A stretch of 64,000 nt of DNA, from NCBI GenBank assembly GCA_008632985.1, contig QPGO01000123.1, positions 1-64,000 of the forward strand, written 5' to 3'. Both the position numbers and the translations under genes were made by a program. Of this stretch, positions 1-45,004 are shown piece after piece (positions within the stretch are counted from its first letter, which is position 1; every line of letters begins with the position of its first letter). Under the pieces are notes generated by a model. It had not been told where the DNA came from and made no database searches. It was given only the letters and a program-made list of their open reading frames with translations. Origin of the DNA: Psammoneis japonica. Taxonomy: Eukaryota.

Positions 1-645
1 CTCATGGGAACACCTTTTTTGGACCATGACAAGACTGTCTGACAATTGCCAACATCGCAAGTGTCCTCCAGGCTCCATTGCGTCGTTTGTTCCCCACAGT
101 GCGCACTTTCCAAAAATTGTGACGGCAGAAACACGACATGCCGTGATTGTGTGCTGACCAAGCCCCCAAGAAGGATGTCAAGCGCCTCACAAGTCCACAT
201 TGACACACACAACAGGTGCACCAAAGGATGCAGAGTGGGACGAAGCACAAAGATCCCAAACGGATGCGCTTTGGTGGCACCAACGACTTGAAAAACATGC
301 CAACATCACAGATGTCACAATCGACCACATGAGACAATCAATCCACCTTGCAAGCAGCAACAAAAAACAACAATGGTTTTTGGCAAATGGGAAAACGAAA
401 TAAAATGAGAAAACGCATGAAGAACTTACCTCGGCAATGTTGTCGACCATTCAGATGTTACCCGCAGCATGCAGCAATCGAAGCACAAGTCGATGCACAC
501 AACCGTTTGCACCGTGTCGCAACTAAAGCCCCCCAGGAAACCAAGCCAGTGTGTCAAACTCTCCACAACAGCGACAGAAAGAGATCACACATGCAAAACA
601 CGTCCACCCCACAATGTTTGCCATGCCGAGACACATCAAAGTGCA
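1..645. repeat. Unclassified dispersed repeat, TpA-depleted copy; inverted homologue at ~17745-18393
   Basis: By-eye alignment to the reverse complement of 17745-18393 (shared blocks GAAGCACAA..TCCCAAACGGAT, ATAAAATGAGAAAAC, AAGAACTTACC, CCCCAGGAAACCAA). No recognisable protein. Confidence 0.7.
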
Positions 646-1131
646 ATGTGCATGGCTGTTTCTTACGGTGCGATGTGCCAAATCGGGATCATTTGAGTGG
701 AATGAAGGAAATGAAGAGGATTCCCTCTTTTGTGTCATCACACAACTTGCACCATGTTGGACCGTTCATTTCCACTTGTCGTCACAGAAATGGAATTGTG
801 TCATTGTGGGATTCTGCACAAGTTCCAGTGCATTTCCTGCACAGTTTATGAAGAGCTGCCTGCGCAGCTGGACGATTGCCGATCTCAGAGAAATCCACTC
901 ATCTGTCCAAATGGTCTGGTTGTCATCTGTGTGCAGTCTGTCCATTGCAGGACAGATGGGCTGACACCCTCCCCTGATCTGCAACATCTAAAAATGGAAG
1001 GCAATGCAGATCAACTCAAAGAATGGGGATGATGCATGAGAACAGAATGGATGACAAGACAAAGTGTCCAGGCTCAGCTTGCAATCATAAAGGAGCCACA
1101 CAGCACAGGGCAGTGACATCTCCAAAAAGTC

Positions 1132-1133: not shown

Positions 1134-1163
<30 letters not shown>
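1134..1163 (+). repeat. (CAG)10 microsatellite
   Basis: Direct reading. Confidence 0.95.
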
Positions 1164-1164
<1 letters not shown>

Positions 1165-8699: not shown

Positions 8700-11600
8700 C
8701 ACCAGTCGATCGTGCATTTGCACTGTGGATCGTGTGAATCATGCCATCATGCGCCATGTGTGAGTGATGTCATCATGTGGAATCACACCACTGTTGTGGG
8801 CCAGACAACAGGTTGGTGTGCTTCACACGGGTGCTCTCTTGGCATCCTTCTAGTTTGCCTGAGACACAGAGCCATGCCCTCCTGTGGTCATGCTTCCCAG
8901 GTGCGTGCTGACAACACTGCATTGCCACGCACAAGAGGCTGTGCATGGTTGCGCCGTGTTGTCCAGCACTGAGGCATGCTGCACACTCCCCCATGATCAG
9001 GGCCGTTGAGTGACAGAATGTCTCACTGGTGATGGGACACAATCTGCCACAGATTGCACGCATCTGTCAGCGCTCCGTTCTGGGTGCACAATGTGCCGTT
9101 GTCACACACACGGACAACTCTGGCAGGTCCTGCACAGCAGTCAGAACCGCACTTAGAAGATTGTTCTTGTTTCACAAGTGCCAATTGTCCAACGGTGTGT
9201 TGGCACTCCTTGCATTTCTGATTTTCATGCTCGTTGTTTAAGTGGACAAGCTTCTGCTTTCTGGTTTCCATGTGCTTCCACTTGGCACGATGAGCAATGG
9301 ATAAAACCGCATCATGTCCAAAGACCAATTGCGCAGGGCTTGCACACGTGGTCGCATGTGCCACAGCTCTTGTGGCGAAGGCTGCAGCAGATGGAATGCC
9401 ACTCCATGGGTCATCCTCGTCCACTTCCATGTCATGTGCTGAAAATGAACGCACCACATTGCCAAGTGTCTGGTGTGCACATTCGACTGTGGCACTCACC
9501 TGTGGATTGCGTTTGCTTGTGGGTTTCTTCAGAATCCCACAGTCATTTTTGATCATTTGGCTAAATTCTTCCATGAATTCTGTCCCATGGTCACACACTG
9601 TCTGGGTTGGCCACAGACATCTGCACAGCCAGGTTTGTTCCACGACGTTTTCCACTGCATCTGCGCATTTCGCAGACACTTCCTTGATCTCAAACCATCC
9701 GGTTGCCGGATTGATCACAGTGACCGCCCACAATTGCAAGGTGTCCTTTCCGCATCTTTGGATTTTACAGGGCCCTGTCATGGCTGTGCATGGAGTCTCC
9801 CATGGAATTGTCTCAGCAACCTTTTCTGGCAGCTTCCCATGATGCTGCGTTTGGCGTTTTGTCCTCTGGCATCGTTCACACTTAACGCATGTAGAATGCA
9901 CCGTAGACCTCACACTGGGCCAGCAGAAGTGCTGGGCAACAGATGTTTCCGCATGTGTCTCACCCAGATGACACAGTGTTTCATGGTGCCATTCAGTTAA
10001 CGGAACCTGCAATGACTGTGGCACTGCAATTTTGTCCTTGTGACACATTGACTGTCATGATGACCCTCCCCCACGACACGCGCAAATGGAGCAGTCAGAC
10101 AAGTCCTCAGCTTGTGACAGCAGGCGCTTGTCCTGTTGTTGCTCTTTTTGGATGCGCTTGAAGCCAACAGGTGCAGGTGCGGCATCTGGCACATCTGCAT
10201 TGAAAGCTTCATGCAAGGGATGACTCGATGGAGTGTCCTCTGCATCCGGATTGGATTTGGAAGGCAAAGGTGGTGCCAGCCGAAGGCAACCAAGAGTGTC
10301 AGCGACTGGGTCATGGGCACCCTTGACATGTTGTAATTCGGGACTGCATTCTTCACATGTTGACCACCAGCGCATCACGTGTTCGGCATTGAATGCTTCA
10401 CATGTGAGATTTTTATGATCAGTGTGTGCGACCACACGATGACCAAGGAGTGTCGTTCGAAATTCTTTCAACATCTCCACAATGGTGGGCAATTCTCTCT
10501 CCATTGTTGTGTGATTTAATTGCATGCTGTCAAGCTTTCTGCCATGAAATGTGACTGGTTTATTGTCCTGGGATGTGGCTGCTCCCAATTGACATTTAGA
10601 GGCATCGGCATGCATCTCAAAGGGTTTGTTAAAATCAGGATGTGTCAACAACACATCTTTTGACAGTGTCCGCTTGACGGTTTCAAATGCCTTGTCTTCA
10701 ACGGACATCCATTCCCACTTGACAGTCTTGCTAACGAGTTGTGTTGGTGGAGCCAAGACTTCAGAACGTCTGATCCACGTGTCGTGGCAGCAGTTTGCCA
10801 AACAGACAAATGAGCGCAGGTCGCGCTCATTTGCAGGCTTTGCGATGCGTTCAATGGTGTCGACTTTTGCAGGTGTTGGCTGCATGCTGTCATGGTTGAC
10901 AAGATGACCCAAGTGCTCTGGTTGGGTTTGACAGAAGTGTGACTTAGTTGCGTTAACTTCAAGTCCTGCTTTCTGGACCCTCAACAGCACTTCTTCAAGT
11001 TTCTTGAGGTGATCTTCACAGGTGCCTTTTGTCATGATGAGAAGGTCATCTGAGCATGTTTGAACAAATGACAGATCTTCAAACAAGCCTGACATGCACT
11101 CTTGGAAGATGTCTGGCAAATTGCATGACCCCGTGGGCAATGCTTGCATCTCATGCTTGCCCCACAGGAAGATGAGCGCACAGAGCTTCTTGCTGTCAGT
11201 GTCCAAACGAATGTGATGATGACCCACATTAAGATCCAATGATGCAGCCCACACAAAGCCTTTGAGCTTTGGTGGCACATCTTGGACATGAGGGATTGGA
11301 CAAGGTGATTGCTTGATCCATTTGTTCAGCTCCCTGAAGCCATTGATGAACCACACCGTTGAGTCTTTCTTTGGCATGATAAATGATGGAGCCGCCCATT
11401 GGGATCGGTTGAAGTGTTTGAGAAGCAATCGTCAGTGTGATGTCCACAGTTGGTCCCGTGGAGCATGCATGACTTCTGGGTGTTCTTCTGATTCGTGATC
11501 AACAACTCAGAATTGTCCGTTCTGTGGCCCCACTTGCGTGGGACCTTAACATGTTGGTCCTGGTTACCTTCAGCAGACTCAACCTGCTCAACCCGCTTGC

Positions 11601-17571: not shown

Positions 17572-17744
17572 TGGCAAGAAATGTTGAAGCTGTGAATTCT
17601 CGAGCGATACTCGATACGCCAGCACGCTACCGGAGGACTCAACCGGTCCCGCCGTCCGTGACTGAAATTTCACCACGGTGAAGCATGAGAGTCGAATCAT
17701 TCGATTGGACTCAACCGGTCCCGATTTTGCATCAAAAACGGCAT

Positions 17745-18393
17745 GTTTTACTTTGATGCATCTCGCCATGGCATACATCGTGATGACGACGCGTTATGCA
17801 GGGGGGATCTTTTTCTACCATTGTTATTAAGAGGTTGATACATTGGTTTGGTTTCCTGGGGTGCTTTGGTTGCTGCACATGCTATAAACGGTTGCGTGCC
17901 TCGACTCGTGACTCGACTGCTGCACGGTACGTGTAACACCTGAATGGTCCACAACGTTGCGCCGGTAAGTTCTTTCTGTGTTTTCTCATTTTATGCCGTT
18001 TATCTACTCACTAAAGATGTTGTTTGTGCTTTGTTACAGCTTCATAAGAGGATACATCGTCTCGTACGGTCGATTATTGTATCTGCAATATTGGCATCTT
18101 TTTCACGTCGTCGTCATCACAAAAGCGTATCCGTTTGGGAGCCTTGTGCTTCATCCCAATCCACATCTTTTGGTACATCTATTTTTACTATTTTTTTGGA
18201 CTTGTGACGAGCTTGATATGTTTTTGAAGGTCTTGGTCGGCTCGTAATCACAGCATGTCGTTTTTCGGCGATAACAATTTCTTGAAAGTGCATGCCGTGG
18301 GAACAAAACGATACGATGGAGTCTTGGGGATACTCACGACGTTGGCATTTGGCAGACAGCCTTGCCATAGTCCAAAGAAGGTAAACCTGTGAG
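17745..18393. repeat. Unclassified dispersed repeat, TpA-retaining copy (inverted homologue of 1-645)
   Basis: By-eye alignment; both copies keep a GGTAAGTTCT splice-donor-like motif. Confidence 0.7.
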
Positions 18394-19554: not shown

Positions 19555-19845
19555 TGCCGAGTATCACGGTCATCTATATTCATTCGTATATTCATTCGTG
19601 GGTGTCAGCCTGGTGTCAAAAGTGTCAAAAGGATGTCAACGATGACACTTTCTAGAAACCTCTTCTCCTTTCTCGATACATCTCGATGCCTCTCGAAAGA
19701 TTGTTTCTTTATATTTCTACGCGGTTTCTTAGTATTAATTCTACGAGATTTCGGAGTAGCCGAATCTCTTTCATTTCTTCTCACAACATTAGCAACAGTC
19801 AACTTTACAACGCTACTTTATACTGTTACTTGGCGCCACTTGGCA
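19555..19845 (+). repeat. Gypsy 5' LTR
   Basis: Direct repeat of 24164-24454 with 6 transition differences by eye. Confidence 0.97.
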
Positions 19846-19918
19846 TAGTAAATTTACTCCCAAACACTTATTCATCTCTCTTGAGATATATCTACCGATC
19901 ATATTGTCCTGACCAGAC

Positions 19919-22900
19919 ATGTCAGCAGAAAACTGCCCATTCGAACTCAAGCGTCCTGACCGCTCTGAGGAAGAGCGACGCAAAGACCAACTCGTGTCTT
20001 TTGAAAGCCCCATTGATCCTGACGATCCAGATGGGCTTAAAACTACGATCGAGGTACGTAAGTTAGCTTCAACTGAACCGGAAGATGTTCTTACCTTCTG
20101 GTCAAACTTCGATGAACTTGTCAACGATCTCGGTGCGGCTGAAGGACAGCCACGTTTCCGGCTCGTGACCAGACTTATGACCGGAACACCAAAAGACGAC
20201 TGGGAAATCGTCGTAAACGAATGCGAAAACCGCGACCAAGTTACATTCGACACTTGTCGTGAAGAATTTCTGCTCCAACACATGGACAGAGAAATTGCCC
20301 TTGACACCAAGGAATGGCTTCAAAGCCTTAAGAAGCCCAGGAACCAAACTGTCAAGTCATTTGTTAATGACATCCGTCGCTTTAATAAGTTGATTGACAT
20401 CATGCCTGCGCCAACCGAAGATGACGCCGAAAGAGTTCCGTCATTCACGGAAGCGGAATTATCCGTAATCCTTCGAAAATGTGGACCAAGATCATGGGCC
20501 GAAACTCAGACTAAAGCCCGTCTTCGCAACTTAAACTTGAACGACCAAGCTCAATACTACGAGACTCTCCGATGTATGGAACAACGTGGTGACAAAGGGT
20601 CTGCCGACAACAACAGACGCAACAACAATCGGAATCGACGCAACAACGGTCGAAATGCGCGTCGCGGCCAGAATGACGACCAAAATCGCGACACCAGGAA
20701 CAGGAACCAAAACAATCGTGAACAAACATGTCCAATCCATGGCGTTGTACATCCGAACGGTCAAGAGTGCAATGTCATCCGTCGTGAACGTGAAAATTGT
20801 GAGCGGAACCGCGCAAATCGGAATGCGCCGAATCAACAAAATGACTCTCGAAACGAGCCGACACACCGCCATCCTACACGGAGCCGCACACGGAACGTCG
20901 AAAACAACAATGTGGACTCCAAAGCTGGTCGCTCCGCTTCTAACGATGTCGACAGCGTCGCGTCAGATGATGTCAACGATGTTTTTGAAGACGTCACGTC
21001 TCTTCTAGACGATTCCATCGAATCCGAAATAGAAGACAATCTCACCACGGAAGCGCGTGTCCAGATGATTGACACTCATTCTGGAATGCACAAGTTCCGT
21101 GTTGCTTTGCTCGATACCGGCGCAAATCGCAATTTTGTGAAGCGCTCAGCCCTTCGCGGGATTCCTCACAAAATCCGTAAATGCAACGTTCCCGTTAAAG
21201 GCCGTTACAGCACCGTTAATCTACACGAGATTGCGACGCTGACATTGAAGTTCCCAGACTTCGCATCGTCCAAGAAGGTTTCCGTCGATGCTTGTGTGGA
21301 AGACAAAGCCGCAGGAAAACATGACATTGTCATCGGAAGAAAAACCGCCACAGAAATGGGACTCGTTTTTGATTTTCGACATCAAACAATCACGTGGGAC
21401 GATGTCACCCTATCCATGCGATCCAAGGGCTCTTTCGACCAAGTCGAAGTTAATGCAATTCATCCCGGCGATGCTGAATTACCCAAGTTCTTCCAGAATG
21501 CCGTCAACCGTCAGGTTCGAGGTGTGACGAGCAATGCGTGCGACAAGCACAATTGTCGCGACATGGTTCTACGCTGCATACACCTTGATGACGATCAACA
21601 GCACCAACTCATCGAACTCTTCGGACGACACCCGCAATTATTCGATGGCACACTTGGAGCTGTACCCGGTGAACCCGTCCATTTGACCCTGAAACCAGGA
21701 TCGCGTCCATGCTGTGCGAAAGCTTGCACTGTTCCGCAAGCGTCATGTCCCATGGCTCGCAAAGAAGTGGATGAATTGGAAAAAATCGATGTCATTACGC
21801 GCAAACTTCACTCTCCTTGGGGCGCATCCTGTCTTTTCCGATCGAAGAAAAGCGGTGGCATCCGTTTCTTATCCGATTTGCGGAAACTCAACGAGTGTCT
21901 CGAACGGCATCCACATCCACTGCCTGTTGTCGACGACGTCGTATGGAAAATGAACGGCTTTACCTGTGCGACATGTTTGGACCTCAACCGAGGCTACTGT
22001 CACTTCGTGCTTGACGACGAGTCAAAAAAACTCTGCGGTGTCATCCTGCCGTGGGGCAAGCATTGCTGCAACCGCCTGCCGCAAGGAATCAAACCGGCAA
22101 GCGACATTTTTCAAGCTTACATGACAGATGTTTTTCATGACATGGAAGACATCACAGTCTACATCGACAACATCATCCTCTTCACCAAGAACAACTTCAA
22201 CCATCACTGTCAACGACTCGAACTCGTCTTGCAACGGCTCCTCGCGAACAATCTTCACGTGCATGTCGAAGAATCCTGTCTCGCCGCCAAAACCGTCGAC
22301 CACTTAGGCTATGCCATGACTGCAAAAGGCACTCAGCCTCAGAAAAAGAAAATCCCACCCTTGCTTCGCTTCGCTCGCCCTCAAAACCGTCGACAATTGC
22401 GTGGTTTCATCGGGTTCGTGAATTGTTTCAAGAAATTGTGGCACCGACGCAGCCACACTCTTACGCCCTTAACTGCGCTGTCATCAGACAAAGTCAAATT
22501 CAAGTGGACTGACGTCCACACGGAAGCTTTCAATCAGATGAAAAAAATTGTGGCGCGCGAAATCCTCCTCCGATTCCCCGACTTCTCTCAACCTTTCAAG
22601 ATCTATCCGGATGCGAGTGATTGTCAACTTGGTGCAGTGATTGCTCAAGATTTTGATGATGGCGAATGGCCAATTGCATTCTACAGCCGAAAATTATCTC
22701 AAGCGCAACGAAACTACACGACAATGGAAAAAGAGCTACTGTCGCTCGTGGAAACGACCGAAAATTTCAAAAGCATCCTTTTTGGTCATCGATGCCACCT
22801 GTTTGCCGATCACAAAAATCTCACATTTGACAAATTCAAGTCAGAACGCGTCAAACGCTGGCGTTTGCTTCTCGAGGAGTGCGACTGCTCTTTCGAGCAC

Positions 22901-24142
22901 CTGCCAGGCCACAAGAATGTCGTGGCTGATTTTTTGAGTCGCCATCCCATTGTCCAAGTCGATCAAAGCAATTACGAGGAAATGACTTCGTTGGAAATCG
23001 ATCCTTCGACATTCCCCGTTACTTTCGACATTGTCGCCGACCATCAGAAAAAAGATTCTGCTCTTCAGCAACGACTCGACAAGTCCGAATCCCACTCAGC
23101 CGAACTGTTCAACGGAAAACAGATTATCCTTTACAAGAACAAGATTGTCCTCCCTCCAACGCTTTTTCCTGCAGTTCTACAATGGTGCCATGAAACTCTC
23201 TGCCACCCTGGTGCCAATCGCACCTGCCAAACTTTGGCTTCACATTTTTACATTCGCGACATGCAGACGAAAGTCCGCACTTTTGTCCGCAAGTGCCGCA
23301 CGTGTTCCAAATCCAAGCACACTACGGCAAACCATGGCGAATTACCTCTTCCAGATACTACTTATAAACCTTGGCAGGCAACTCAAGTCGATCTTTTCGG
23401 TCCCTGGACGTATGCCGACAAAAATGGTGTCGATCGCAAAATCAGAGCCGTTTCAATTATTGATGTCGCAACCCGTTGGGTCGAACTCGCGAACTATAAG
23501 TTCAAAACGTCCGAAGACATTTCACTTATCGTCGATCGCGAGTGGTTTTGTCGCTATCCGCGACCAGAAATTGTCATTTATGACAACGGTTCCGAATTCA
23601 CTTCCGAGTTTACAGATCTCCTCTACAGTTATGGTGTTAAACCGAAACCTACAACAATCAAGAATCCTCAAGCCAACGCGTTCGTTGAACGTATTCATCA
23701 AGTGATAGCCGATTCTCTCCGTGCGATGGATCTCCCTTCTCGCGATCATGATGAAGACACAATTCATGGAATTTTGCAATCCGTTGCATGGGCCTTGCGC
23801 AGTACCTACCATACTGCCCTTATGTCGTCTCCCGGACAAATTGTCTTCGGTCGAGACATGGTCATTTCTGCTACTTATCTTGCGAACTGGAAAATGATTA
23901 ATACCCGTCGCAAGCGCGATGTCCTACGCAATAATCTCCGCGAAAACGCAAAACGTCTTACTTACGACTACAACATCGGCGATCAAGTCTTCGTTATGAC
24001 CAAAGACATCCAACGCAAACTCAACACCAAAGATGGTCCTTTCCGTATCGTACGTGTCCATACCAATGGAACCGTTACCATCCAGCGCTCGCCTCACGTC
24101 ACTGAACGTATCAATATCCGCCGTCTTCACCCTGTCTTCTAA
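19919..24142 (+). CDS. Gypsy gag-pol polyprotein (gag, protease, RT, RNase H, integrase), 1407 aa; open but probably non-functional
   Basis: CPIHG knuckle, LLDTGA protease, LDLNRGY and LPQG, YIDN in place of YIDD, DASD.QLGA, HETLCH..CRTC, DNGSEF, GPF. Confidence 0.95.
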   Translation: MSAENCPFELKRPDRSEEERRKDQLVSFESPIDPDDPDGLKTTIEVRKLASTEPEDVLTFWSNFDELVNDLGAAEGQPRFRLVTRLMTGTPKDDWEIVVNECENRDQVTFDTCREEFLLQHMDREIALDTKEWLQSLKKPRNQTVKSFVNDIRRFNKLIDIMPAPTEDDAERVPSFTEAELSVILRKCGPRSWAETQTKARLRNLNLNDQAQYYETLRCMEQRGDKGSADNNRRNNNRNRRNNGRNARRGQNDDQNRDTRNRNQNNREQTCPIHGVVHPNGQECNVIRRERENCERNRANRNAPNQQNDSRNEPTHRHPTRSRTRNVENNNVDSKAGRSASNDVDSVASDDVNDVFEDVTSLLDDSIESEIEDNLTTEARVQMIDTHSGMHKFRVALLDTGANRNFVKRSALRGIPHKIRKCNVPVKGRYSTVNLHEIATLTLKFPDFASSKKVSVDACVEDKAAGKHDIVIGRKTATEMGLVFDFRHQTITWDDVTLSMRSKGSFDQVEVNAIHPGDAELPKFFQNAVNRQVRGVTSNACDKHNCRDMVLRCIHLDDDQQHQLIELFGRHPQLFDGTLGAVPGEPVHLTLKPGSRPCCAKACTVPQASCPMARKEVDELEKIDVITRKLHSPWGASCLFRSKKSGGIRFLSDLRKLNECLERHPHPLPVVDDVVWKMNGFTCATCLDLNRGYCHFVLDDESKKLCGVILPWGKHCCNRLPQGIKPASDIFQAYMTDVFHDMEDITVYIDNIILFTKNNFNHHCQRLELVLQRLLANNLHVHVEESCLAAKTVDHLGYAMTAKGTQPQKKKIPPLLRFARPQNRRQLRGFIGFVNCFKKLWHRRSHTLTPLTALSSDKVKFKWTDVHTEAFNQMKKIVAREILLRFPDFSQPFKIYPDASDCQLGAVIAQDFDDGEWPIAFYSRKLSQAQRNYTTMEKELLSLVETTENFKSILFGHRCHLFADHKNLTFDKFKSERVKRWRLLLEECDCSFEHLPGHKNVVADFLSRHPIVQVDQSNYEEMTSLEIDPSTFPVTFDIVADHQKKDSALQQRLDKSESHSAELFNGKQIILYKNKIVLPPTLFPAVLQWCHETLCHPGANRTCQTLASHFYIRDMQTKVRTFVRKCRTCSKSKHTTANHGELPLPDTTYKPWQATQVDLFGPWTYADKNGVDRKIRAVSIIDVATRWVELANYKFKTSEDISLIVDREWFCRYPRPEIVIYDNGSEFTSEFTDLLYSYGVKPKPTTIKNPQANAFVERIHQVIADSLRAMDLPSRDHDEDTIHGILQSVAWALRSTYHTALMSSPGQIVFGRDMVISATYLANWKMINTRRKRDVLRNNLRENAKRLTYDYNIGDQVFVMTKDIQRKLNTKDGPFRIVRVHTNGTVTIQRSPHVTERINIRRLHPVF

Positions 24143-24163
24143 CGTCTCAATTGGGGAAGCGAG

Positions 24164-24454
24164 TGCCGAGTATCACGGTCATCTATATTCATTCGTATAT
24201 TCATTCGTGGGTGTCAGCCTGGTGTCAAAAGTGTCAAAAGGATGTCAATGATGACACTTTCTAGAAACCTCTTCTCCTTTCTCGATACATCTCGATGCCT
24301 CTCGAAAGATTGTTTCTTTATATTTCTACGCGGTTTCTTAGTATTAATTCTACGAGATTTCGGAGTAGCCGAATCTCTTTCATTTCTTCTCACAATGTCA
24401 GCAACAGTCAACTTTACAACGCTACTTTATGCTATTACTTGGCGCCACTTGGCA
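24164..24454 (+). repeat. Gypsy 3' LTR
   Basis: Direct repeat of 19555-19845. Confidence 0.97.
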
Positions 24455-24533
24455 CTCACAAACACCAAACACTTCTCACAAAATCCGTGGATGATTCATC
24501 GTTGCATCTGAAAGATCTGAAAGAACACACACC

Positions 24534-25628
24534 ATGTGCAAGGAAACCACCGAAATCGAGACCGGCGCCTCCACCATTGAGAAGACTGGCCACCAAGATG
24601 ATGCCAGTCGTGCTTCGTCTTCTGGCGCAACGGTGATGGTGGCAAAGGTTCAGCTCAAGAGGATGAAGCTTCTCATGGCTTTCCTTGGGGCGTGCACCAT
24701 TGGTCTCCTCATCTCTGCCATCTGCCTCGCTGTTGATCGCGACAACGAAAGGAACAAGAACAAGAAGAAGGTGGAGGTTGCCACCGTTGAAGGACCCAAC
24801 CCTTGCCAGGGCAAGCGTCCCGAGTTGCCCAATGTTGCTTGTGTGATTGACGAGATGACCCAAACCGGCGAGCAATCCGGTTCGAATGTCACCAAGGGCT
24901 GCAATGGCGACAGCGACACCGACGCTGAACCCATCACCACCTCATGCTTTGAGGCCGGCTTGTGCCCCGTCAATGTACACTGGCATCTTGGTGCCGAGCA
25001 CTGCTCCGCTGGTGAGTTTGACGAGAACGGCACCGGTCCCCTTGATTTCCATGAAGGCCGTCAGGGATTCCGTTGCAAGTGCTGTGATGAAAACGACCCC
25101 AAGTTCACCACTCCCTTCGACTGGCAGCACTGCATTGGCATGATGGTTGGCCAAACCTGCGAAGTTCACTGGCCCCACTCTGCTGCTGGTGCCTGTGGTA
25201 CGCCCTTCCAGTGCCAGACTCCCTTTTGCGATGGTGTTTTTTGCCGCGACGACGTCATCACCAACACTGCTCAGCAGATTGGTGTTCAGTCCCAAGTCTT
25301 TGCCATTGTCAATGATGAGAACTACCACTGCCCCGACTTATTCCGAGGTATGATTGTCGATGGTGACAAGGGAACTGATGTTGCGAAGTACACTGGTTCC
25401 ACCACCGGCACCTCCCGTGACAACGAGATGTGCTCCCCGTTTGCTCCCATCACCTGGCAGGTTGACCGCAAGTGCCATCTCATTTCAGCCTCGAGCTTTG
25501 ACAAGATGTGCATGGACATGAGGTCCCAGGCCGACAACATGAATGACGATCTTTACGCTCACGGATCTCGTGAACTTGTTGATGACGAGCACGCCGCGAA
25601 CAACCAGCAGCTCCGTCGTCGTGCTTAA
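24534..25628 (+). CDS. Delta-class carbonic anhydrase (TWCA1 family) with an N-terminal membrane anchor; many Tyr->Cys/His changes, possibly damaged
   Basis: LCPVNVHWHLGAEH, EVHWPHSAAGACG, DGVFC, IGVQSQVF.IVNDE, YTGSTTGTSRDNE, PITWQVDRKCHLISASSFDKMC, HGSRELV; hydrophobic LLMAFLGACTIGLLISAICLAV. Confidence 0.92.
   Translation: MCKETTEIETGASTIEKTGHQDDASRASSSGATVMVAKVQLKRMKLLMAFLGACTIGLLISAICLAVDRDNERNKNKKKVEVATVEGPNPCQGKRPELPNVACVIDEMTQTGEQSGSNVTKGCNGDSDTDAEPITTSCFEAGLCPVNVHWHLGAEHCSAGEFDENGTGPLDFHEGRQGFRCKCCDENDPKFTTPFDWQHCIGMMVGQTCEVHWPHSAAGACGTPFQCQTPFCDGVFCRDDVITNTAQQIGVQSQVFAIVNDENYHCPDLFRGMIVDGDKGTDVAKYTGSTTGTSRDNEMCSPFAPITWQVDRKCHLISASSFDKMCMDMRSQADNMNDDLYAHGSRELVDDEHAANNQQLRRRA

Positions 25629-27642: not shown

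Positions 27643-27643
<1 letters not shown>

Positions 27644-27677
<34 letters not shown>
27644..27677 (+). repeat. (TG)17 microsatellite
   Basis: Direct reading; lies near the 3' end of the CRE-like fragment. Confidence 0.95.
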
Positions 27678-27681
<4 letters not shown>

Positions 27682-27799
27682 AAATGATGACAGCGACCCT
27701 CACCCCAAAAGCGCCGTCCAAAAGGAAAGACGAGAACACGGACAGCAACAGCAATCTCATGGTTGTCTATTTTCGAGGTTTGTTTCAGGAGAGGAGCGA

Positions 27800-28265
27800 C
27801 TTCAAGATACCGGTGCTAGATGGTTGCTGTGCATGTGTGGCGGGAGAGGTGCGCGAAGCGCGCTTGGGGATGGAGAAAAAAAGGGAGGGCCCAAAGTGCG
27901 GACAGACGGTTGAGGCGAAGAGTTGGATGGCAACAGAGGCACCGTTGGGCGGGTGATGAAGTAATTGATCACGGTATGAAGAGAGGTGGTGGGAGAGAGC
28001 ACAGCCAAAGTTGAGGCTGAGGATTTGGGAAGCCCAGAGTTGAGGTGTGGCAGTGTGATGGGAAGAGCCGAAGCGGTCCGGGGACAGCAGTTTTTCCAGG
28101 CCGTTTTAGAGTGGCTGAGGAGGTCAGAAGGGGCAAGCAGTGAGTTGGTGAAGGCAGAGAAGGATGCTTGAGAGTTGGAGAAGGGTGATGGGCTTGTCCA
28201 GGGTGGTTTGGGTGGGAGGGGCAGGACAGAGGCGGGTGCAGAAGAGGAGGATCCGAAGAAGAAGA
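27800..28265 (-). mobile_element. 3' part of a CRE-like non-LTR element split by the CoDi insertion
   Basis: FFGSSSS..PKPPWTSPSPFSNSQASFSAF parallels LFGSTSSS..PKPPWSSSSNFRHSDASYSAF of the 14.3-17.3 kb element. The left edge is approximate. Confidence 0.8.
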
Positions 28266-28542
28266 TGACAGAAATTGAAGGCAAATGGCAAGAATTCAAA
28301 ACAATGACTCCTTGCTGCTGTCTAAACAGCAGATGAGTCTCCGCTCAGAGACCGTTACAGGAGCCGAAAGACGTGTAAGTCGGTGCAATCGGGCTGCTGT
28401 TGTCATTCTTGTGAGCCTTGTGGCTCGAAAGCAAACTACATCGCGCGTGAACGCGCGGAACTAAAGCACACAAAACTGTGCGCGGTAAACTAAACAGCGC
28501 GCGATACTTCGCGCGCATCCAAATCCTGTTCAAATCCTGTCA
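28266..28542 (-). repeat. CoDi 3' LTR
   Basis: Direct repeat of 35101-35377. Confidence 0.97.
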
Positions 28543-31500
28543 CTCCCCAGTTTGCTTGAGGAGCCACAGAAACAGATTCGACTTTGGATGGAATGAAGTT
28601 CCAGAACATGAGGGGGCGGAGAAGGTCCCAGATTTGGGAGCAACCCCAATGCTTGCTGAGAATGTCAGCAGGGTTGCGGGAGCCTTCGATGAAGTGGAAC
28701 TCAAGGTAACCAGAGGCAATTGCCTCACGCACACGGTGGAACGACAGTGCGGTGTGTCGCTTGTGCAACTTGGAGTGCGGGATGGTGGCACTGTCTACAG
28801 CCGACTTGTTGTCACCGAACATGTAACTGACATTGCGGATCGGGACGCCAAGGTGGCGCAGGGTGATGCGCAGGTCGACAATCTGCTCAACACAATTCCT
28901 TGCGGCAACAAATTCAGATCCGCAGGTTGCAGTCTCCACGGTGGCTTGTTTCTTGGAGAACCAATCAGCCGGGAATTTGTTGAGGAAGTGGAGCATTCCC
29001 ATGACAGAGCGTCCGGTGAGCATGCAATGGCACAAGTTTGCATCGACGCAGTGGGTGGCAGTGACGAACTTGCCAAGGGGCGGTGGAGCGTCCTTCGGGA
29101 TCATCTCTTCTGCTTCACCATAAACGGAATGCATCCATTCACAGGCCGGAGCAGGGAGATCCGAACAGTCGGGCTCTTCCGTGCGAACGCGGAGAGCACC
29201 GTGTCGCATCTTGGAGAGGTGCCCACAGACGCGTTTGGCACGATCCAAGTGGCCTTGACGGGGCGCAGCTCGGAAGCTAGAGAGTGACATGACGGCCGTG
29301 GCAATGTCAATTCGACCAAGGGACACTGCCCATTGGAGTGAACCAACAAGAGACTGGAACTTGTGAATGCCATCGGGTCCCAGCAGTTCGGAAGTGTCCA
29401 GTTCGGGGTGGTCACCCTTCTCTAGAGGTGACAGGGCGTTGGTGGCAGGTTTCTCCCCAAACAGTTGGGCGCAGCTGTCGACCATGCGCTCGATGTACTT
29501 GCGCGGAGACAGGCACAAGGTTCCGTCGGGGTCCCGGGAAAAGTCGCAACCCAGATGGAACTCAATGGGTCCCGCACCCTTGAGCTTGAACTTGTGCTTT
29601 TCCGTGAGAGTGTTGACGAAAGATTGAGGGTCCTTCATGGCAATGGCGAGGTCATCCACATAAACGGCAATGTGTTCACAGTGGTCGCCGTTCCTGCGCA
29701 TCCAAATGTCGGGTTCGGCGTGGCAGGGGAAGAAGCCTTCAGCTAGCAGGCAGTCGGCGAAGCGCTCGTGCCAGCGGAGACCGGAGCTGCGGAGTCCATA
29801 CAGTGCCTTGTGGATGACAAGGATGTGTCCTTCGAGTTTGCCAAATTCGGGTCCAGCTACAATGTAAAGCTTCTCCTTGGTGGTGGCTTCAAGGCAGGCA
29901 TTGCCAATGTCGGTGGCCCATGTCTCCAGCTCGTTGAGTTCGGCCAGGAAAATCATCAGCCGAAGGCCACGGAGGGAGACTGCTCCGGAGTAGACACTGT
30001 CGACAGGCACGTCCGTGAGGTGCCCGTCGGCTGCGAGTCGTGCCTTGTGGCGACCGTCGTGTTTCACGTCGTACACCAGGTGCACTTGGATCTTCTTGTG
30101 TCCCACAGGAGGAGTGGAAGACTTGAAGGGCCCGCAGTCATGGAAGACTTCGTATTCGTCGAGTTGGTCCATCTCGAGATTAGTTGCGTCTCCCCACTTG
30201 CGGTTGCCGTTGCATTCGTCCAGTGACATGGCGTGTTTGTAGTTCCGGGGAACTTCGCATCCGTACTTGTAGCGAGGTGCAGTGCGGAAGGAGCGAAGCT
30301 TGGCTTGGTTGGCCATGCGAAATAGCTTCTTTTGGCGCCTCGCGATGGTGCGGAACCGCTTCCAGCCATCCGTGTCGAGGAGTCCGTTCTCTCGTGCATA
30401 GATGGCACAGGTGACGGGGTCGTCCTTGGCGATGATGGCAAGAGGCTCGGACGTGATCTCCCCACTTTCCCATTCAAGCATGATGTTGTAGCTTGAGCCT
30501 TTCCAGGTTGGGTCGTGAGGCTTCAGAGGTCCTTCGTGTGACACGATGCGTCGAAATTTCCAAATAGTGGTGTCTTCGTCTTCTTGCTCAATGTGATTCA
30601 TGATGTCATTGTAGGCAAGGACTTCCTCGCATTCGTCATTGTTGACAGAGCAGACGAACTTAGTGAGCTCGGGATTGCCGTTCACTTTCCATTCGTGGTC
30701 TTCGACGGCCTTGACGATGCGAGCTCTGTGGCGTTGTCCGTCCTCTTGTGGCTGCATGAGGAAGGTACGTCCAATGATGTCTTGCGGATCGAAAACTGGC
30801 ATCTTGGGTGTCCTGATCTCCCCATCAGGAGAATCGACGGGGTTGTCGTCATGGCGAGATTTGATGATGGGTTCAGGTGGCTCCCCATCAGGAGGATCAA
30901 GACGCAGGTTTCGAACGGCAGGATCGGGGGTAGCGGAGCGAACGTTGGACCGGTGGAGGATCTTCTGAGTCTCGTCAGATAGAATCTTGAAGGTCATCTG
31001 GTGGCCGACGTGCTCAGCAATGCCAACGAAGCGTCCACGCAACTCACGGGATTCGGACGGCCAATCGTAGTCATCGAGGTGGAAGTGCACTGGTTCCCAC
31101 CAGTGAAAGCGAAGCAATGGGCTGATGTCCGGGGTGGATCCAGTGAGAGTCTCGAGGGGCGTGCGCCAGTGGAGACGTGGGGACGCTGTGTGGTTGAGTG
31201 TGAAGCACACGTGCATGAGCGCCAGCAGCCATGTGTGGGCGGGCGAACCAAAACGGTCCATGACAGTGTTCGCCATGCGCTTCACGGTCTGGTGTCAACG
31301 CTCGGCAAAGTTTTGGTGTTGCTGGTGAGGCTCACTTTGCCAGCTGGAGATGAAGAGGGCGCGTAGGATCCCGAGCACTTTGTTGCTGATCTCAACTTGA
31401 GCACGGTCGCTAATGAGTTTGGACGGGGCACCACGTTCACGGATCTGATCCTCGAGTGTGTTGACAAACTCTTTGTCCGTCTTAGTGCCGTAGACGTCAG

Positions 31501-34159
31501 TGACGGCAGACTCGGTGCCAACAAACAGTTGGGCGCTGGTGCAACCAGAGTCGACGGCCGGGGTGTCGGCACAAACGGTGTCAGTGGCGACAGGCTCGTT
31601 GCGGCGGTGCACATTAAGGGCGGGGTTGGGTGATTTGAAGGCCTTGCGAAGGTGTGTACCGGCGGGCATGCGGGCGCACTGCGTGGTGCAGTCAAAAGTA
31701 CGACGGACCGCATCGGTGGGTAGGAAGCCAAAGCAAGGCCGAAGAGACTCGAAGGGGGGGTCCTTGGGCTGTACAGTGCGCTCCGGAGGTGGAACGTCAT
31801 CGCCCTTGGGGTCAATCGCATGCAGATGACACTCGCAGAACACGTCGTCGTTCGGAATGAGGTGATCATCGAGGGCGGACGCGTGATCGGCAGACAAGGA
31901 AGCGGACAAGATGGTCTCGTTGACAATGACACGGTGACGGCAGTTGCCGCATTCGTCAAATGGGTTGGCAGTGGGATCGTCCTGCAGGTCAGAGATCGCG
32001 TCGTGCCACTGGTCGTCGTCAGTGACAGAGTGATCGAGGACGGAAGGGTCCCATGTGTCATCACCGGTGAGGATGACATGGGGCAGGGTGTCCCATTCGG
32101 CGTCAGTGCAAGGTCGCATGGCAACACAAGGCAGGCCAGCCTTGATGTCAATGGGGATGACATAGCCATCAGGAGTGGCAACACGTTGCAAGCCGTTGGG
32201 CACCTTGACAGAGCGATCGTTGACATCCTGTTTGCACCATTCGAGCTGGCCGCAGGAATGGATGGTCTTGCCCTTGCCCGTGCATGCGCACTGATGGAGG
32301 ATGGCGATGACGGGACCACGCTGGGTCTCAATGACGGCACCAGCAGTGACAATGGGGATGTCCACCAATTGATGATCGTCAATGCCCTGAACGTCGACTT
32401 GGCGAGAGGTGCGTGCAATGACGCGAACGTCGTCGCCAGCAATGCCGCCGTTGGCCCCACGATCGACTGGAGCACCAGTGCGTGTGGAGCGATGAGCAGA
32501 GGCAGAGCAAATGACATTGTGGTTGTCAACGCGGCGGCAAGTGCGGCCATTAAGTTCTGTGTCATCTGCAGAGGCTGGCGGGGTAGAGGAAGCAGCGGAT
32601 GGCCCCGGTCGACTGGCATTGGGGGCTTGGTTAGGAGACAACAGACGTTGCAGATCACCGGGTGGCAGTGGCTTGCGCTTGGTGAGGTGCGCCAGGATGG
32701 GATTATCCGAAGTGGCGTCCACATGTGGAGCGGAGTCACCAGAGTCAGCAGGAGTCGTGTTGGACAAGTTGACACCACCGTCACTCCCAAGGCGTTGGTC
32801 GTGAAGGTTGGCCGTAACAGACTCATGGCAGTTGCTGGCTCGCGGGTTGCGGGGAGGCGGACGAGAATGCTCAAGGATGATCGCCTTGGAGGAATCGGGC
32901 AACGAATCCCAGAGCCGTTGGTGGTCGGGAGGGAGACGTCTCCATTGGACACCGGTGAGGCTGGGACCGCGGGTGTAGGCAGCATTGGCTTGAAGGACGT
33001 CAACGTCGCTGTCAATGTCGTAGAACACATCGTCGGACGGTTCCTCGGAGTGGACGTCGTGTGCGCACATGGCGCGTCGGGGAGCTCGAGGTGTCGTCTT
33101 GGGTTGAAACGTGCTGTCGTGCTGAGCTGCCGCGGAGAGGAGCAAGCCACAGCATTGATCGTATGTGAGGCTCTTGCCACTCTGCGTACGATGCTGATCA
33201 GCTTGGTTCTTGACAGCACGGAGTTCCTCGACAGGGTGCACGGCATTCTCGAGCATGACGCGCTTCTGTCCTTCAGAGAAGTGGTCACTGGCCGGGATGA
33301 GTGCCTCGTGCTTGCGCAACTGATCTTGCCAATGAAGGATGAACCCGTGGGTCGGACCTTTCCAAGTGCCATCACCAAGACGTGCGGTGGTGAGGTGCGT
33401 CAGCAGGGTGGAGGACTCGACAGATGCGCGGGTGGAGGCAAGCGCGCACTCAGACAAGGAGCGGTGGACGGTCTGTGCATCAGAAGACCCCACATTTTCG
33501 CGAATGAGAGCCTTGCCCTTGTCGGTGAGAAGGATGCGTTCGAAGACGGCGAACATGTGCTTTTGCTGTTCAGCAAAGAGCAGTTTGTCTTCGGGGCTGG
33601 TCGGTTTGTACGACGAGTCTAGAATGCACTCGACGTCTTGGGCACGGGCTTGTGCCACAAGTGAGGTGTGCCAAGTGTGCCACTGCTTGTCGGATTTGAG
33701 AGCCGTGAAAGCGGTGGGATCACGCTTGATGCCTCGCTTGAAGTCCCGCACCGGGTCGCGTGCCTTGGTCGGGTTGGTGACATGTGGAGGTGCAAGGGGT
33801 GAGCTGCCGATGGACACAGAAGACATGCAGTCGGGGCTGAGGCGGCAGGCAAGGAACTCGTCATGCGCGAACAAAGAGGAGTCATTGGCAACGTCAAGAC
33901 CTTTGTGTGCTTTGACAATGTACAGACTGACCAGTGCTGCTAACATGTTCTTGTAACCACGGGGCAAAGGGATTGCATTAGTGCCGTTGTCGCACTCAAG
34001 CGAGTCGATTTGGGACGGCATGAACGTGAATGGTTCCTGATGCGAGTCCGTGCCGTCTTGGGCCAAAGCCAAACGAAGAGGACTCCCAGCACCTTGGGCA
34101 AGCACGGTTCCAACAACGTGCTCGAAACCATCGGTTTGTTGCTGACGAGTGAGAACCAT
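28490..34159 (-). pseudogene. CoDi gag-pol (gag, protease, integrase, chromodomain-like segment, RT, RNase H) with one in-frame TGA at 31295-31297
   Basis: FKRGIKRD gag, VDRGANGG protease, LISDRAQVE and SEPHQQHQNFAER*HQTVKR integrase, WKFRRIVSH..LEWESGE, KARLAADG, YVDD, SEF..GDN..NPADILSK. Confidence 0.93.
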
Positions 34160-35100
34160 GGTGGACAAAAGTGGTGTCAGGACAATCAATTCTGGTTGGG
34201 AAGCGAAGGTAGACTCGAAACTTGGGTGAGAACAGACTTGACTTGAAACAGACTTGACTTGAAATCTTGAACCATCTTAAAATCAGAAGTCGCCGGGCTT
34301 TGTCATCCCGTTCGTTGTTGAGTGCTAAACTTCCTGTCCGGTCCGCAGAGTTGTGCCGGCACGTCCGAACCCGCAGCCAGCGGCGCTTTGGGTTGCTTAC
34401 GAGCGGAGCAGCGGGTTGTAAACCCCTGCAGGTGAGCTGACTAGAGGTGGACAAGACCCCCGAACCGTTCTCATTTTATGTCGGTTGGATTTCCCGATCA
34501 GGCTGGCCAGTTGACGCAGGCGTCAGGCGCTGTGGACGAACGAACAAACGCGGGAAAGCACCCTCGCCCCAACGCAGGCTGTAATCACGGCTGCTTGCTC
34601 TCACAGTCGTCCTCGTGGACCTGGCAGAACTGTGGAGCACCAGCAGTCCGGGGCAGATCAGGTGCAATGGACTCGGTGTGCTTGCAGAGTGGCAGCAAAA
34701 CCGCAGTCCGAAGAGTGGATAAAGGTTCTTGGCCGTGAAGACATGCACACACATGTGTGTGGCCTCAGCGACTAAGATCCTTGAATGTGCAGGGTTCTTG
34801 ACCGTTAACCGAGAAATGGGTATATCAAGGGATGTTGATCAAGGATAGACTTGGATGTGACCGTTGAATATAAGTCTTCAGCGATCAAAGGTAGTATAAT
34901 CAATCCAGACATCCAGCGGTAAGGAGACTTGACGGTGACGTTAACTTCCTGCCGATGCCCTGGCATTGAATGCGCGTAGACTTGCCGATGTATGTAGAAC
35001 ATGTGCGGAGGTCCACGCAGAATTGAAATGGCGTCGTTGGTAAATCAACGACGACGATGGCGGTTGCTCAATGGGTTGACAATGAGCAAGACTGTTAATC

Positions 35101-35377
35101 TGACAGAAATTGAAGGCAAATGGCAAGAATTCAAAACAACAACTCCTTACTGCTGTCTAAACAGCAGATGAGTCTCCGCTCAGAGACCGTCACAGGAGCC
35201 GAAAGACGTGTGAGTCGGCACAATCGGGCCACTGTCATCATTCTTGTGAGCCTTGTGGCTCGAAAGCAAACTACATCGCGCGTGAACGCGCGGAACTAAA
35301 GCACACAAAACTGTGCGCGGTAAACTAAACAGCGCGCGATGCTTCGCGCGCATCCAAATCCTGTTCAAATCCTGTCA
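35101..35377 (-). repeat. CoDi 5' LTR
   Basis: Direct repeat of 28266-28542. Confidence 0.97.
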
Positions 35378-35382
35378 GAAGA

Positions 35383-36260
35383 CATGAAAATGGCGTCCGA
35401 TGCCGCCTGCTGGGTGGTCGAAGGTGAAAGGGAAAAGGAAGAGGCCTGCTTGGCTGATGGCATCAATGACATCAGAGTTGGCAATAGATTGGGTAGAGTG
35501 ACCAACAAGCTTGTCCCGTGCGCTGCTGAGGTGAACCTTGTTCAATGGGTTTTCAGGGACAGGCAAGCCAGGTGCAGGAACCGGGGGAGCTGGTGGCACA
35601 GTGATGTCGATGGCCAAGAAGTGATGAGTGGATGGGGCGTTGGGTGGTGTGGAGCTGGGAGCAAGTTGAGTGCCAACATCGGCGGGGCATTCAAGGGGGT
35701 GGTCAGCGAGAAGGCCGGGTGGTTCAAGATGTGCTTGTTGTCGGGAGAGGCACAGGCCACAAAGAGGACCCAGGGTGTCGATGATGGTGCAGATGGTGTC
35801 GCGGATGTGGTTGGACAGCAGGCTTTCATGCATTTTGGAGCATGCAAAGGCATGATCACCAAAGGGGTTGGGGCGGGTGTGACTGCATGGACAGTCGTGT
35901 TGGAGCAAGGCGGCAGGAATTGCAGGGAGGCGCAGCTTGCGGAGGAGGAGCAGTGTGAAAAGGTGTGAGGGAAGTTGATTGGAGGCGGAGGATTGGGAGA
36001 GGGAATGTGGGCAAAGGCTTGTCAGAGGAGATGGAAGGGATGGAAGGGCTGGTTGCATGGAAGGATTGGCAAGGATCTGAGGAAGAGTGTTGGTTTTGTG
36101 TTGATGAAGGTGAAGGCGTTGGGCAAGGCCGTGCAGGTCATGGTGTTCGATGGCATGCTTGAGGGACACGAAGGAAGAGGAGTCGAAGCAGAGGAGAATG
36201 GGAGTGCAATGATGGAAGACACGGTAAAGGGAGAGGGAGGAGCATGGGTTGGACCATGAG
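35383..36260 (-). mobile_element. Upstream part (zinc knuckle and RLE) of the CRE-like element interrupted by CoDi
   Basis: LRKLRLP..CPCS..FGDHAFAC..SNHIRD..LGPL..LEP..PADVG..LAIDITVP..PFTFDH.GGIG, colinear with the 14408-16120 ORF. Confidence 0.88.
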
Positions 36261-36267
36261 CCGATGG

Positions 36268-44400: not shown

Positions 44401-44439
44401 CCAAGCCTCAGGCAGCCGCTGCAAGAAGTGGTGCAAATT

Positions 44440-45004
44440 TTAAGATTGAATTGAATTGAACATGATGGTCGGACATGCAAAAGATCTTTTCGCGCAAAAG
44501 CTGTGCAAAAGGTGGAATCCACTGCAAGGAATCCGGAATCCCAAATGTCTGAGAATGTGGGAATTCCTGACCAAACAAATGTCCGTTGAACAAATGTGTG
44601 CAGCACTGGGAGGTGTTGGACAGATCCAAATGCACAGATCTAATCCAACATCCAGCAGTGGAGAAGGCAGGTGCATGCTTCCACCGCCAACAATGTGCGT
44701 TGTCGAATTTTTTGGGTGATGATGATGAACGCTCAATGGCTGAAAATGAGCAAGACTGTCAATCTGACAGAAAATGAAGATCACTGGGGTGGAAGAAAAC
44801 AATGGCTCCTTGCTGCTGTCTAAACAACAGATGAGTCTCCATGCAGAGACCATCGCAGGAGCCGAAGGACTGGTGTCATGATGTTGGTGCTGCTGTTGTC
44901 ATTCTTGTGAGCCATGTGGCTTGAAAGCAAACCACATGCGCGCGGAGCCAAGAGCAAACACACAATTGTGTGCAACAAACCAAAATCTTGTTCAAATCCT
45001 GTCA
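44440..45004 (-). mobile_element. Relic of a related CoDi: 5' LTR (44765-45004) plus adjacent internal leader
   Basis: TGACAGAAA..CTCCTTGCTGCTGTCTAAAC..GATGAGTCTCC..TTGTTCAAATCCTGTCA, preceded by TGAGCAAGACTGTCAATC, matching 35083-35377. Confidence 0.88.

Follow-up and report, generated by a model that had tools for sequence, protein, structure and literature searches.

Long terminal repeats of a Ty1/copia-type element in the diatom Psammoneis japonica differ only at TpA, TpG and CpA steps, pointing to TpA hypermutation after integration

The window, i.e., the whole stretch of DNA analyzed here, comprises 64,000 nucleotides (nt) of the diatom Psammoneis japonica (contig QPGO01000123.1 of assembly GCA_008632985.1, positions 1 to 64,000 of the forward strand). 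It harbors a retrotransposon of the Ty1/copia type that is bounded by two long terminal repeats (LTRs), and this study concerns the way in which these two LTRs have come to differ from each other. The element and its target site duplications (TSDs) are arranged as follows; for each LTR the dinucleotides at the eight differing sites are given in order from site 1 to site 8.

28261..28265: left copy of the TSD, GAAGA
28266..28542, minus strand: LTR of 277 nt, the 3' LTR of the element; TG TG TA TA TG TG TG TA
28490..34276, minus strand: gag-pol frame of the Ty1/copia type, 1929 codons interrupted by a single in-frame stop (TGA at 31295-31297), RVT_2 in its distal half
35101..35377, minus strand: LTR of 277 nt, the 5' LTR of the element; CA TA CA TG CA CA CA TG
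35378..35382: right copy of the TSD, GAAGA

The distal part of the frame was assigned to the Pfam family RVT_2 (E 4.2e-26; score 92.5 bits, cut-off 31.6). Pfam returned no family in the upstream part of 993 amino acids (aa), and the order of integrase before reverse transcriptase is implied only by the collinear alignment with homologous polyproteins of 1570-1618 aa, which extended across 28523-33256. More than 1400 homologues of pol were found, all from metagenome-type sources, with the best being 67% identical. The viral contigs scanned for relatives of pol contained none, and a search of metagenome contigs with a 22-nt LTR-end pattern gave a single match, located at the extreme end of a contig without an LTR behind it. 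The LTRs have TG...CA ends, and a polypurine tract adjoins the LTR at 28542. As the element is encoded on the minus strand, its 5' LTR is the one at 35101, which is a correction to the first-pass annotation of this DNA. The identical 5-bp TSD GAAGA on either side shows that both LTRs belong to one insertion. Together these features make it a complete LTR retrotransposon of the Ty1/copia type, encoded on the minus strand. Its observed/expected ratio (o/e) for TA was 0.27, and its GC content was 0.56 compared to about 0.48 in the flanks. Two further frames were present in the element, one on the opposite strand (632 aa) and one in another frame of the minus strand (705 aa). In its features the element resembles the CoDi elements, as these appear in passages of Maumus et al. 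(2009; PMC2806351), and it may be related to them: it is of the RVT_2 copia type, has a 5-bp TSD and short TG...CA LTRs, and resides in a diatom host.

The repeat search, which covered 27500-36200, found one direct-repeat family with two copies of 277 nt (28266-28542 and 35101-35377). These were 96% identical and their alignment was free of gaps. Alignment and a scripted count gave 12 differing nt, all of them transitions (12/12), distributed over eight sites. This agrees exactly with the 277-bp LTRs, eight sites and 12 nt of the first-pass annotation, and the alignment likewise reproduced its division into four sites at which one copy has TA and the other TG or CA (single) and four sites at which TG is opposed to CA (double):

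Site 1, double: left TG (28305-6), right CA
Site 2, single: left TG (28313-4), right TA (35148-9)
Site 3, single: left TA (28356-7), right CA (35191-2)
Site 4, single: left TA (28376-7), right TG (35211-2)
Site 5, double: left TG (28384-5), right CA
Site 6, double: left TG (28395-6), right CA (first base 35230)
Site 7, double: left TG (28401-2), right CA
Site 8, single: left TA (28505-6), right TG (35340-1)

The dinucleotides common to both LTRs were 5 TA, 21 CG, 17 TG and 21 CA. No CpG differed between the LTRs and all 21 shared ones were intact. The TA, TG and CA steps cover 102 of the 277 LTR positions (0.368), and the probability that eight of eight independent events fall within them was 3.4e-4. 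The occurrence of at least four adjacent pairs among 12 random positions was similarly rare (p = 7e-4 in 200,000 simulations). Counted on the 26 copies of LTR TA sites, there were 12 hits, against no changes elsewhere in the 277 nt. The changes in the left LTR were all of the TG type (5/5).

From the LTR pair alone, a change of TA to TG/CA is indistinguishable from a change of TG/CA to TA, and the polarity was therefore taken from independent tests. The pol sequence was aligned with its 80 best homologues, which resulted in 434 columns conserved at 80% or more. In these columns 13 of the 22 conserved tyrosines were changed (five to His by CAC, five to Cys by TGY, two to Phe and one to Trp), compared to 24 of the 412 other conserved residues (Fisher 4e-10 for the tyrosine excess). 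Conserved His (17/17), Trp (14/14), Gln (7/7) and Cys (3/3) were all unchanged, i.e., 0 of 41 had been replaced. In the gag-integrase part, tyrosine was changed in two of three conserved columns, both times to Cys.

Further copies of the family were analyzed in contigs from four runs (X1 to X4) of one sample, placed at an identity of at least 80%. The family was highly abundant, with 14,339 contig pieces in X1, and the depth of the LTR was 3-5 times that of the interior. Its variation in X1 consisted of 362 transition and 53 transversion places, plus indels. The site-level states reported here come from the 40 of 422 variable places listed, among which nearly all transitions sit in pyrimidine-purine steps. 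At positions 28766, 30008, 30221, 31507 and 35212 the window reads CA or TG and the family reads TA in 75-99% of its depth, and the window codons TTG, GTG and CTG correspond to TTA (92% of depth), GTA (95%) and CTA (75%) in the family. At aa 725, 499 and 435 the window has TAY (Tyr), as do 79 of the 80 homologues in terms of the encoded residue, and 51-71% of the family depth encodes Cys or His. A His codon (CAC) stands at 29220-1 of the window and a Cys codon (TGC) in 45% of the family depth; as this column is Tyr in 78 of 80 homologues, the TG/CA dimorphism derives from TA. Two of the LTR sites were visible among the places listed. At site 4 (35212), A made up 76% of the depth in X1 and 100% in X2-X4, which gives a TA majority. 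At site 6 the first base (35230) was T in 70% and 100% of the depth and 35231 showed no change among the places listed, so that TA is indicated here too. The first-pass annotation expected TA in the family at all eight sites, and these two agree with it. The earlier statement that all CpGs are intact held for the LTRs (21/21) and failed in the interior of the element, where at least five CpG sites had changed to TpG/CpA relative to 96-99% of the family depth. The only stop in gag-pol (TGA at 31295-31297, minus strand) is CGA in 96% of the family depth. Its origin is a CpG transition and not a process acting on TpA.

The origin of the double sites was compared by likelihood. Derivation from TA (5 intact, 4 single, 4 double) gave -16.2 and derivation from CG (21 intact, 0 single, 4 double) gave -30.9, the former being better by 14.7 log units. 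Together with the 21 intact LTR CpGs this supports the non-CpG origin of the TG/CA doubles that was proposed in the first-pass annotation. The TA ancestry proposed alongside it gains support from the conserved tyrosines, the His/Cys dimorphism, the family depth, the likelihood and the context ranking described below. Taken together, these comparisons support a polarity of A:T>G:C, with TpA as the source of TpG and CpA.

The context ranking was measured in old DNA poor in TA, amounting to 31.7 kb. Surviving TA was mostly found there in CTAA/TTAG and TTAA, at ∼0.47-0.50 of the host-like level, and the contexts ATAT, ATAG/CTAT and ATAC/GTAT were essentially lost (0-0.008 of the host-like level). 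In the LTRs, the five intact TA sites were CTAA (three times), GTAA and CTAC, the single-hit sites were GTAA/TTAC (three times) and ATAC, and the double-hit sites were ATAA/TTAT (twice), GTAC and CTAC. The hits per LTR TA site were correlated with the hotness of the context (Kendall tau -0.56, permutation p 0.01). Hot sites would be hit in both LTRs and thus yield doubles, with opposite strands affected in an expected half of these cases.

Depletion of TA was also observed in other parts of the window, in which the following features were distinguished.

1..700, plus strand: repeat copy poor in TA; its TA-normal counterpart (TA o/e 0.85) lies inverted at 17700-18420, and the two are 74% identical
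9023..11431, minus strand: old gypsy-type pol remnant at saturation, with TA o/e 0.13 and CG o/e 0.50
19555..24454, plus strand: complete Ty3/gypsy-type element with LTRs at 19555-19845 and 24164-24454 and the TSD CTCAC
24495-25628, plus strand: delta-carbonic-anhydrase open reading frame (ORF) within a TA-free block at 24455..25628; Pfam CA_like, E 8.9e-45
44731..45004, plus strand: third LTR-like fragment, diverged (79-84% identical) and from the family of the copia element or a sister family, within TA-poor DNA; TG at sites 1, 2, 6 and 7 and CG at site 3

The LTR pair of the complete gypsy element differed at 6 nt. Each of these is a transition and falls at a pyrimidine-purine step (CG/TG, CA/TG as a double, TA/CA, TA/TG and TG/TA), and five of the six differences were at TA-derived sites. 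Its ORF (19913-24142, plus strand) was open across 1409 aa, and 8 of 14 conserved tyrosines were changed (four to His, three to Cys). In the old gypsy remnant, all 14 conserved tyrosines had been replaced (10 by His, 3 by Cys, 1 by Met). This remnant also had 8 of 17 conserved arginines changed, and in seven cases the new residue was Trp, His, Cys or Gln, as results from CpG decay. In the repeat pair, the 35 TA of the normal copy corresponded to 13 CA, 10 TG and 3 TA in the poor copy, and its 39 CG corresponded to 11 CA, 6 TG and 15 CG. Viewed in reverse, at most one of the five TA of the poor copy aligned to CA or TG in the normal copy. The two copies at 1-700 and 17700-18420 are the same repeat, unequally targeted. 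About half of the window (1-14400, 35378-52000 and 56310-58000) had a TA o/e of 0.05-0.13 and a CG o/e of 0.25-0.50, with TG and CA at 1.5-1.95, and consisted of complex, non-repetitive sequence. A Pfam search of 24 ORFs of the TA-poor regions (∼33 kb) yielded nothing, or only sub-threshold matches to SH3_retrovirus, RVT_1 and zf-RVT.

The block with the delta-carbonic-anhydrase ORF had a TA o/e of 0.14, with no TA in 24455-24975 and eight in all, and CG was normal. Of its conserved tyrosines 9 out of 11 were changed (five to Cys, one to His, three to Phe), compared to 3 of 133 other conserved residues. Judged from its sequence, this is a host-type gene copy, perhaps a duplicate or a retrocopy, that was hit by the same TpA process. 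The block extends from the gypsy insertion site to the stop codon of the ORF, and TA is dense again from 25675. Both 3' flanks of the LTR elements are TA-poor, and a spread of hypermutation by read-through downstream of the 3' LTRs was considered. It was unsupported, since the block ends exactly at the stop codon, a border that a discrete targeted unit fits better.

The ∼1 kb beside the 3' LTR of the copia element (27300-28265) had a TA share of 0.05-0.08 with normal CG, next to TA-normal DNA at 25655-27254. This stretch may be an older hit element that received the copia insertion, or hypermutation may have spread into it from the copia element. The TA-poor interval 36000-44000 showed an excess of A over T (skew of +0.19 to +0.28), with TG at 1.8 and CA at 1.4-1.5, and contained long plus-strand ORFs without a Pfam match. 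Between 14401 and 17750 a GC skew of +0.28 to +0.38 was accompanied by an AT skew, a minus-strand ORF of 698 aa without a Pfam match and a TA o/e of 0.40, and a weak RVT_1 trace was seen at 16508-17194. This interval probably represents another degraded retroelement, one in which the loss of TA is intermediate. The TpA process is not specific to the copia element and acts across repeats of the region plus one gene copy.

Host sequences of the window were used as controls. The Deltex gene (62275-63552) had none of its eight conserved tyrosines changed (0/8). Its best homologue was 65% identical, and its named homologues were all from diatoms (Attheya, Cylindrotheca, Amphora, Conticribra and Pseudo-nitzschia). 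The Deltex, Ulp1 and PLD ORFs had a TA o/e of 0.45-0.55 and non-repeat stretches reached 0.85, compared to 0.05-0.27 in the repeats. The borders between TA-free and TA-normal DNA were sharp. As a second control, 28 copia loci (L002-L029) of other families, with 34-63% aa identity to the pol studied here, were taken from genome contigs. The TA o/e was 0.59-0.89 in 26 of these 28 and 0.46 and 0.32 in the other two, the latter being a piece of 871 nt. The LTR pairs of three of these loci showed mixed transitions, transversions and indels. The control loci sit in contigs binned as bacterial or archaeal metagenome-assembled genomes (Sphingobacteriaceae, Weeksellaceae, Methanotrichaceae and others), in which copia loci are most likely eukaryotic contamination.

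The pattern in the LTRs is very probably explained by a local hypermutation of the DNA of the copia element, from TpA to TpG/CpA, after its integration. The element would have integrated and its DNA would then have been struck by a local process that turns TpA into TpG or CpA. On either strand, the A of 5'-TA-3' would undergo an A:T>G:C transition, and both TG and CA arise because TA is self-complementary. Approximately half of the element's TA sites would be hit; hot contexts would be hit in both LTRs and on opposite strands, which would give the doubles of TG versus CA, and the cold contexts CTAA/TTAG would remain TA. With age, TA would be driven near zero (o/e 0.05-0.13), followed by a slower, ordinary decay of CpG to TpG/CpA. 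Relative to each other, the TpA process is fast and CpG decay is slower, as 0 of 21 CpGs and about half of the TA sites were changed in the LTRs. The change is placed after insertion, because LTRs of one insertion by an established rule start identical and the TSDs match, and on these grounds the post-insertion, DNA-level origin claimed in the first-pass annotation is supported. As to the chemistry, we consider the most likely candidate to be an enzyme that deaminates adenine at TpA in DNA and is directed at silenced or foreign sequences, as has been put forward for Bigelowiella natans. A miscoding thymine modification at TpA would yield the same pattern and is the main alternative chemistry.

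Two consequences follow from such a process. A change of TA to TG or CA removes TAA and TAG and never creates them, and elements that were hit therefore keep long open frames even though their conserved tyrosines are replaced. Long ORFs in this DNA accordingly indicate neither genes nor activity. Moreover, as all 12 LTR differences (12/12) are attributed to TpA hypermutation, LTR divergence measures exposure and not age, and the earlier remark that dating by LTR divergence is invalid here was well founded.

Several observations weigh against post-integration TpA hypermutation. The LTR-like fragment at 44731..45004 has TG at sites 1, 2, 6 and 7, as in the left LTR. This agreement would by simple parsimony make TG ancestral at these sites and would require TG>CA changes at the doubles in the right LTR; under independent decay of TA the chance of the agreement is 1 in 16. 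At 33309-10 the window has TG and all ten family contigs placed there have CA, no homologue spans the codon, and a TA ancestor is not supported there. The family states cover two of the eight LTR sites, and as X1 may be the source sample of the window, it offers no independent confirmation of the window letters. One uniform rate fits the 5 intact, 4 single and 4 double sites poorly, so that heterogeneity among sites is needed; the likelihood comparison and the context ranking favor it, on small numbers. Strand-coordinated, kataegis-like runs of hits, suggested by the uniform TG type of the changes in the left LTR, were dropped as a candidate, as the runs test showed none (23 polarised hits in another repeat, 14 runs, p 0.83).

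One rival explanation is ectopic gene conversion, by which part of one LTR would have been overwritten by a family copy, importing polymorphisms that the TpA process had made elsewhere. The family is hugely repeated, with its LTR several times deeper than its interior, TG/CA dimorphisms are present among its copies, and the third copy carries the TG of the left LTR at four of four comparable sites. The matching TSDs, however, argue that no inter-element recombination took place. None of the 12 differences (0/12) is a transversion, an indel or other than TA-derived, although the family varies in these ways (53 transversion places in X1, and indels), and the hits per site track context hotness, as in-place mutation predicts. 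Conversion is therefore regarded as improbable, and it would alter where the mutations arose and not their cause. Still less likely is a decay of C to T, either driven by methylation or resembling repeat-induced point mutation (RIP), from an ancestral state of CA/TG where single and of CG where double differences now stand. The LTR pair alone reads equally well in either polarity, CpG decay is present in the window (7 of 17 arginines of the old gypsy remnant, and five sites of the copia interior at which the family has CG in 96-99% of depth), and the third copy has CG at site 3. Against this, none of the 41 conserved His, Gln, Cys and Trp residues of copia pol was changed compared to 13 of 22 tyrosines, the opposite of what C>T changes would leave, and TA is depleted in the old repeats (o/e 0.05-0.13) and not enriched. 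The 21 LTR CpGs are intact without any CG/TG or CG/CA single, and the likelihood is worse by 14.7 log units. The frame of 1929 codons holds a single stop, itself derived from CpG, where RIP makes many.

The least credible explanations are RNA editing and an artefact, which we consider about equally far-fetched. An ADAR-like A-to-I editing of the transcript before reverse transcription would be inherited by new copies, and the preference of RNA-editing adenosine deaminases for a 5' U, as stated in passages of two sources (10.64898/2026.01.13.699255; PMC11156358), matches the TA motif. Both LTRs are, however, copied from one template and identical at the start, and editing cannot make them differ. 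Across the three elements (copia, open-frame gypsy and old gypsy), changes of Tyr to His (sense T>C) were as common as those to Cys (19 versus 11); as both strands were hit, editing of the sense RNA is excluded. DNA other than transposons was also hit, namely the delta-carbonic-anhydrase block and the flank at 27300-28265. An artefact could have arisen from base-calling or consensus errors at modified TpA or from collapsed repeat copies, given that two N gaps interrupt the scaffold forming the window, that the family is very repetitive and that X1 is possibly the source sample. The same states were nevertheless found as separate k-mer contigs in four runs. The replacement of 14 of 14 tyrosine codons in the old gypsy remnant, in addition to its CpG decay, is an evolutionary pattern, the borders between TA-free and TA-normal DNA are sharp, and the host genes in the window are clean.

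If hypermutation of TpA after integration occurs genome-wide, P. japonica would represent a second, distantly related algal lineage with a TpA-specific A:T>G:C hypermutation of mobile DNA, which would be a candidate for a widespread genome defence. A comparison of the gene sets of both lineages would then be a direct route to the enzyme. Dating by LTR divergence and repeat landscapes based on Kimura distance would be badly biased. An open ORF is no sign of transposon activity, as the gypsy frame of 1409 aa is open with 8 of 14 tyrosines replaced. Homology searches fail on sequences that were hit, as seen with Pfam in the ∼33 kb of TA-poor DNA, and this affects repeat annotation. The like recoding of the delta-carbonic-anhydrase copy suggests that the process can reach cellular genes. 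More speculatively, diatoms and chlorarachniophytes might share an inherited, enzyme-driven editing defence that acts on transposons, integrated viruses and some duplicated genes by turning their TpA into TpG/CpA and that reads the tetranucleotide context of the duplex (TAA/TTA cold; ATAT, ATAG and ATAC hot); we hold this to be possible, with the balance somewhat against it. Such a defence would leave open, tyrosine-less "ghost" ORFs, repeats with raised GC and an occasional recoding of host genes (Tyr to Cys or His), and it would amount to a widespread analogue of RIP in algae, opposite in chemistry and never making stop codons.

RIP makes TpA from CpA or TpG, lowers the GC content and creates stop codons. 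The process described here is like RIP in that dinucleotide-specific transitions occur on both strands of repeats, inactivate transposons, may touch neighboring or duplicated genes and distort dating based on divergence. It is unlike RIP in that TpA is destroyed, GC is raised (0.56 versus about 0.48) and no stops are made, and the fungal type of RIP, with its C:G>T:A changes, TpA enrichment and stops, does not describe what was found. In filamentous fungi RIP is a dinucleotide-specific process resembling a genome defence. It is treated in passages of PMC7296669 and PMC12543289. Deamination of 5-methylcytosine at CpG likewise affects a self-complementary dinucleotide, has the same TG/CA products and occurs in the older repeats of the window. 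Its substrate, however, is CG, and in the LTR pair 0 of 21 CpGs were changed compared to about half of the TA. The APOBEC3 enzymes change G to A on one strand during reverse transcription, and ADAR acts on RNA and prefers a 5' U. Both resemble the present case in that deaminases drive clustered transitions that disable retroelements, and differ from it in that here A:T>G:C changes occurred on both DNA strands and after integration. Deaminase editing of retroelements and hyper-editing by ADAR are treated in passages of PMC4866542 and PMC3197674.

The closest known system is that of the chlorarachniophyte Bigelowiella natans, as presented in passages of a 2026 preprint (Mettrop et al., bioRxiv 10.64898/2026.01.13.699255). 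In mutation-accumulation lines of this alga, two integrated viral regions gained 231 mutations, of which 230 were A>G or T>C; every one of these GC-biased mutations was at TpA, and the rate was about 1000 times the background. Coding sequences depleted in TpA were enriched for reverse-transcriptase and DDE domains. The same passages propose adenine deamination in DNA at TpA, name an ADAT2-like candidate and draw a comparison with RIP. As far as these passages go, the two systems are alike in having A:T>G:C changes only at TpA, on both strands and confined to foreign or silent regions, and in a clustered, long-term depletion of TpA with enrichment of CpA and TpG. They differ in the host, which is a rhizarian there and a diatom (a stramenopile) here, and in the sequences that are hit, which are viral insertions there and LTR retrotransposons of two superfamilies, old repeats and the delta-carbonic-anhydrase copy here. 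The depletion is deeper here (TA o/e 0.05-0.13 versus a Rho of 0.45 in their region derived from a nucleocytoplasmic large DNA virus, NCLDV) and is accompanied by CpG decay in older copies. The evidence comes from mutation-accumulation lines in B. natans and is comparative here. Effects on LTR pairs and the survival of open ORFs do not come up in these passages.

Our literature searches returned no report of TpA hypermutation in diatoms. A term search of the available text of Maumus et al. (2009; PMC2806351) found no mention of hypermutation, deamination, dinucleotide, TpA or RIP, and a term search of the accessible text of a 2025 preprint on diatom transposable elements (10.1101/2025.10.24.684338) found no mention of the process. 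Passages of a mutation-accumulation paper on Phaeodactylum (PMC6604790) describe a GC>AT bias and contain no such hotspot. A process of this kind is already in print for one other alga, and in P. japonica the same signature is found in a lineage of a different supergroup, where it has been carried to saturation.

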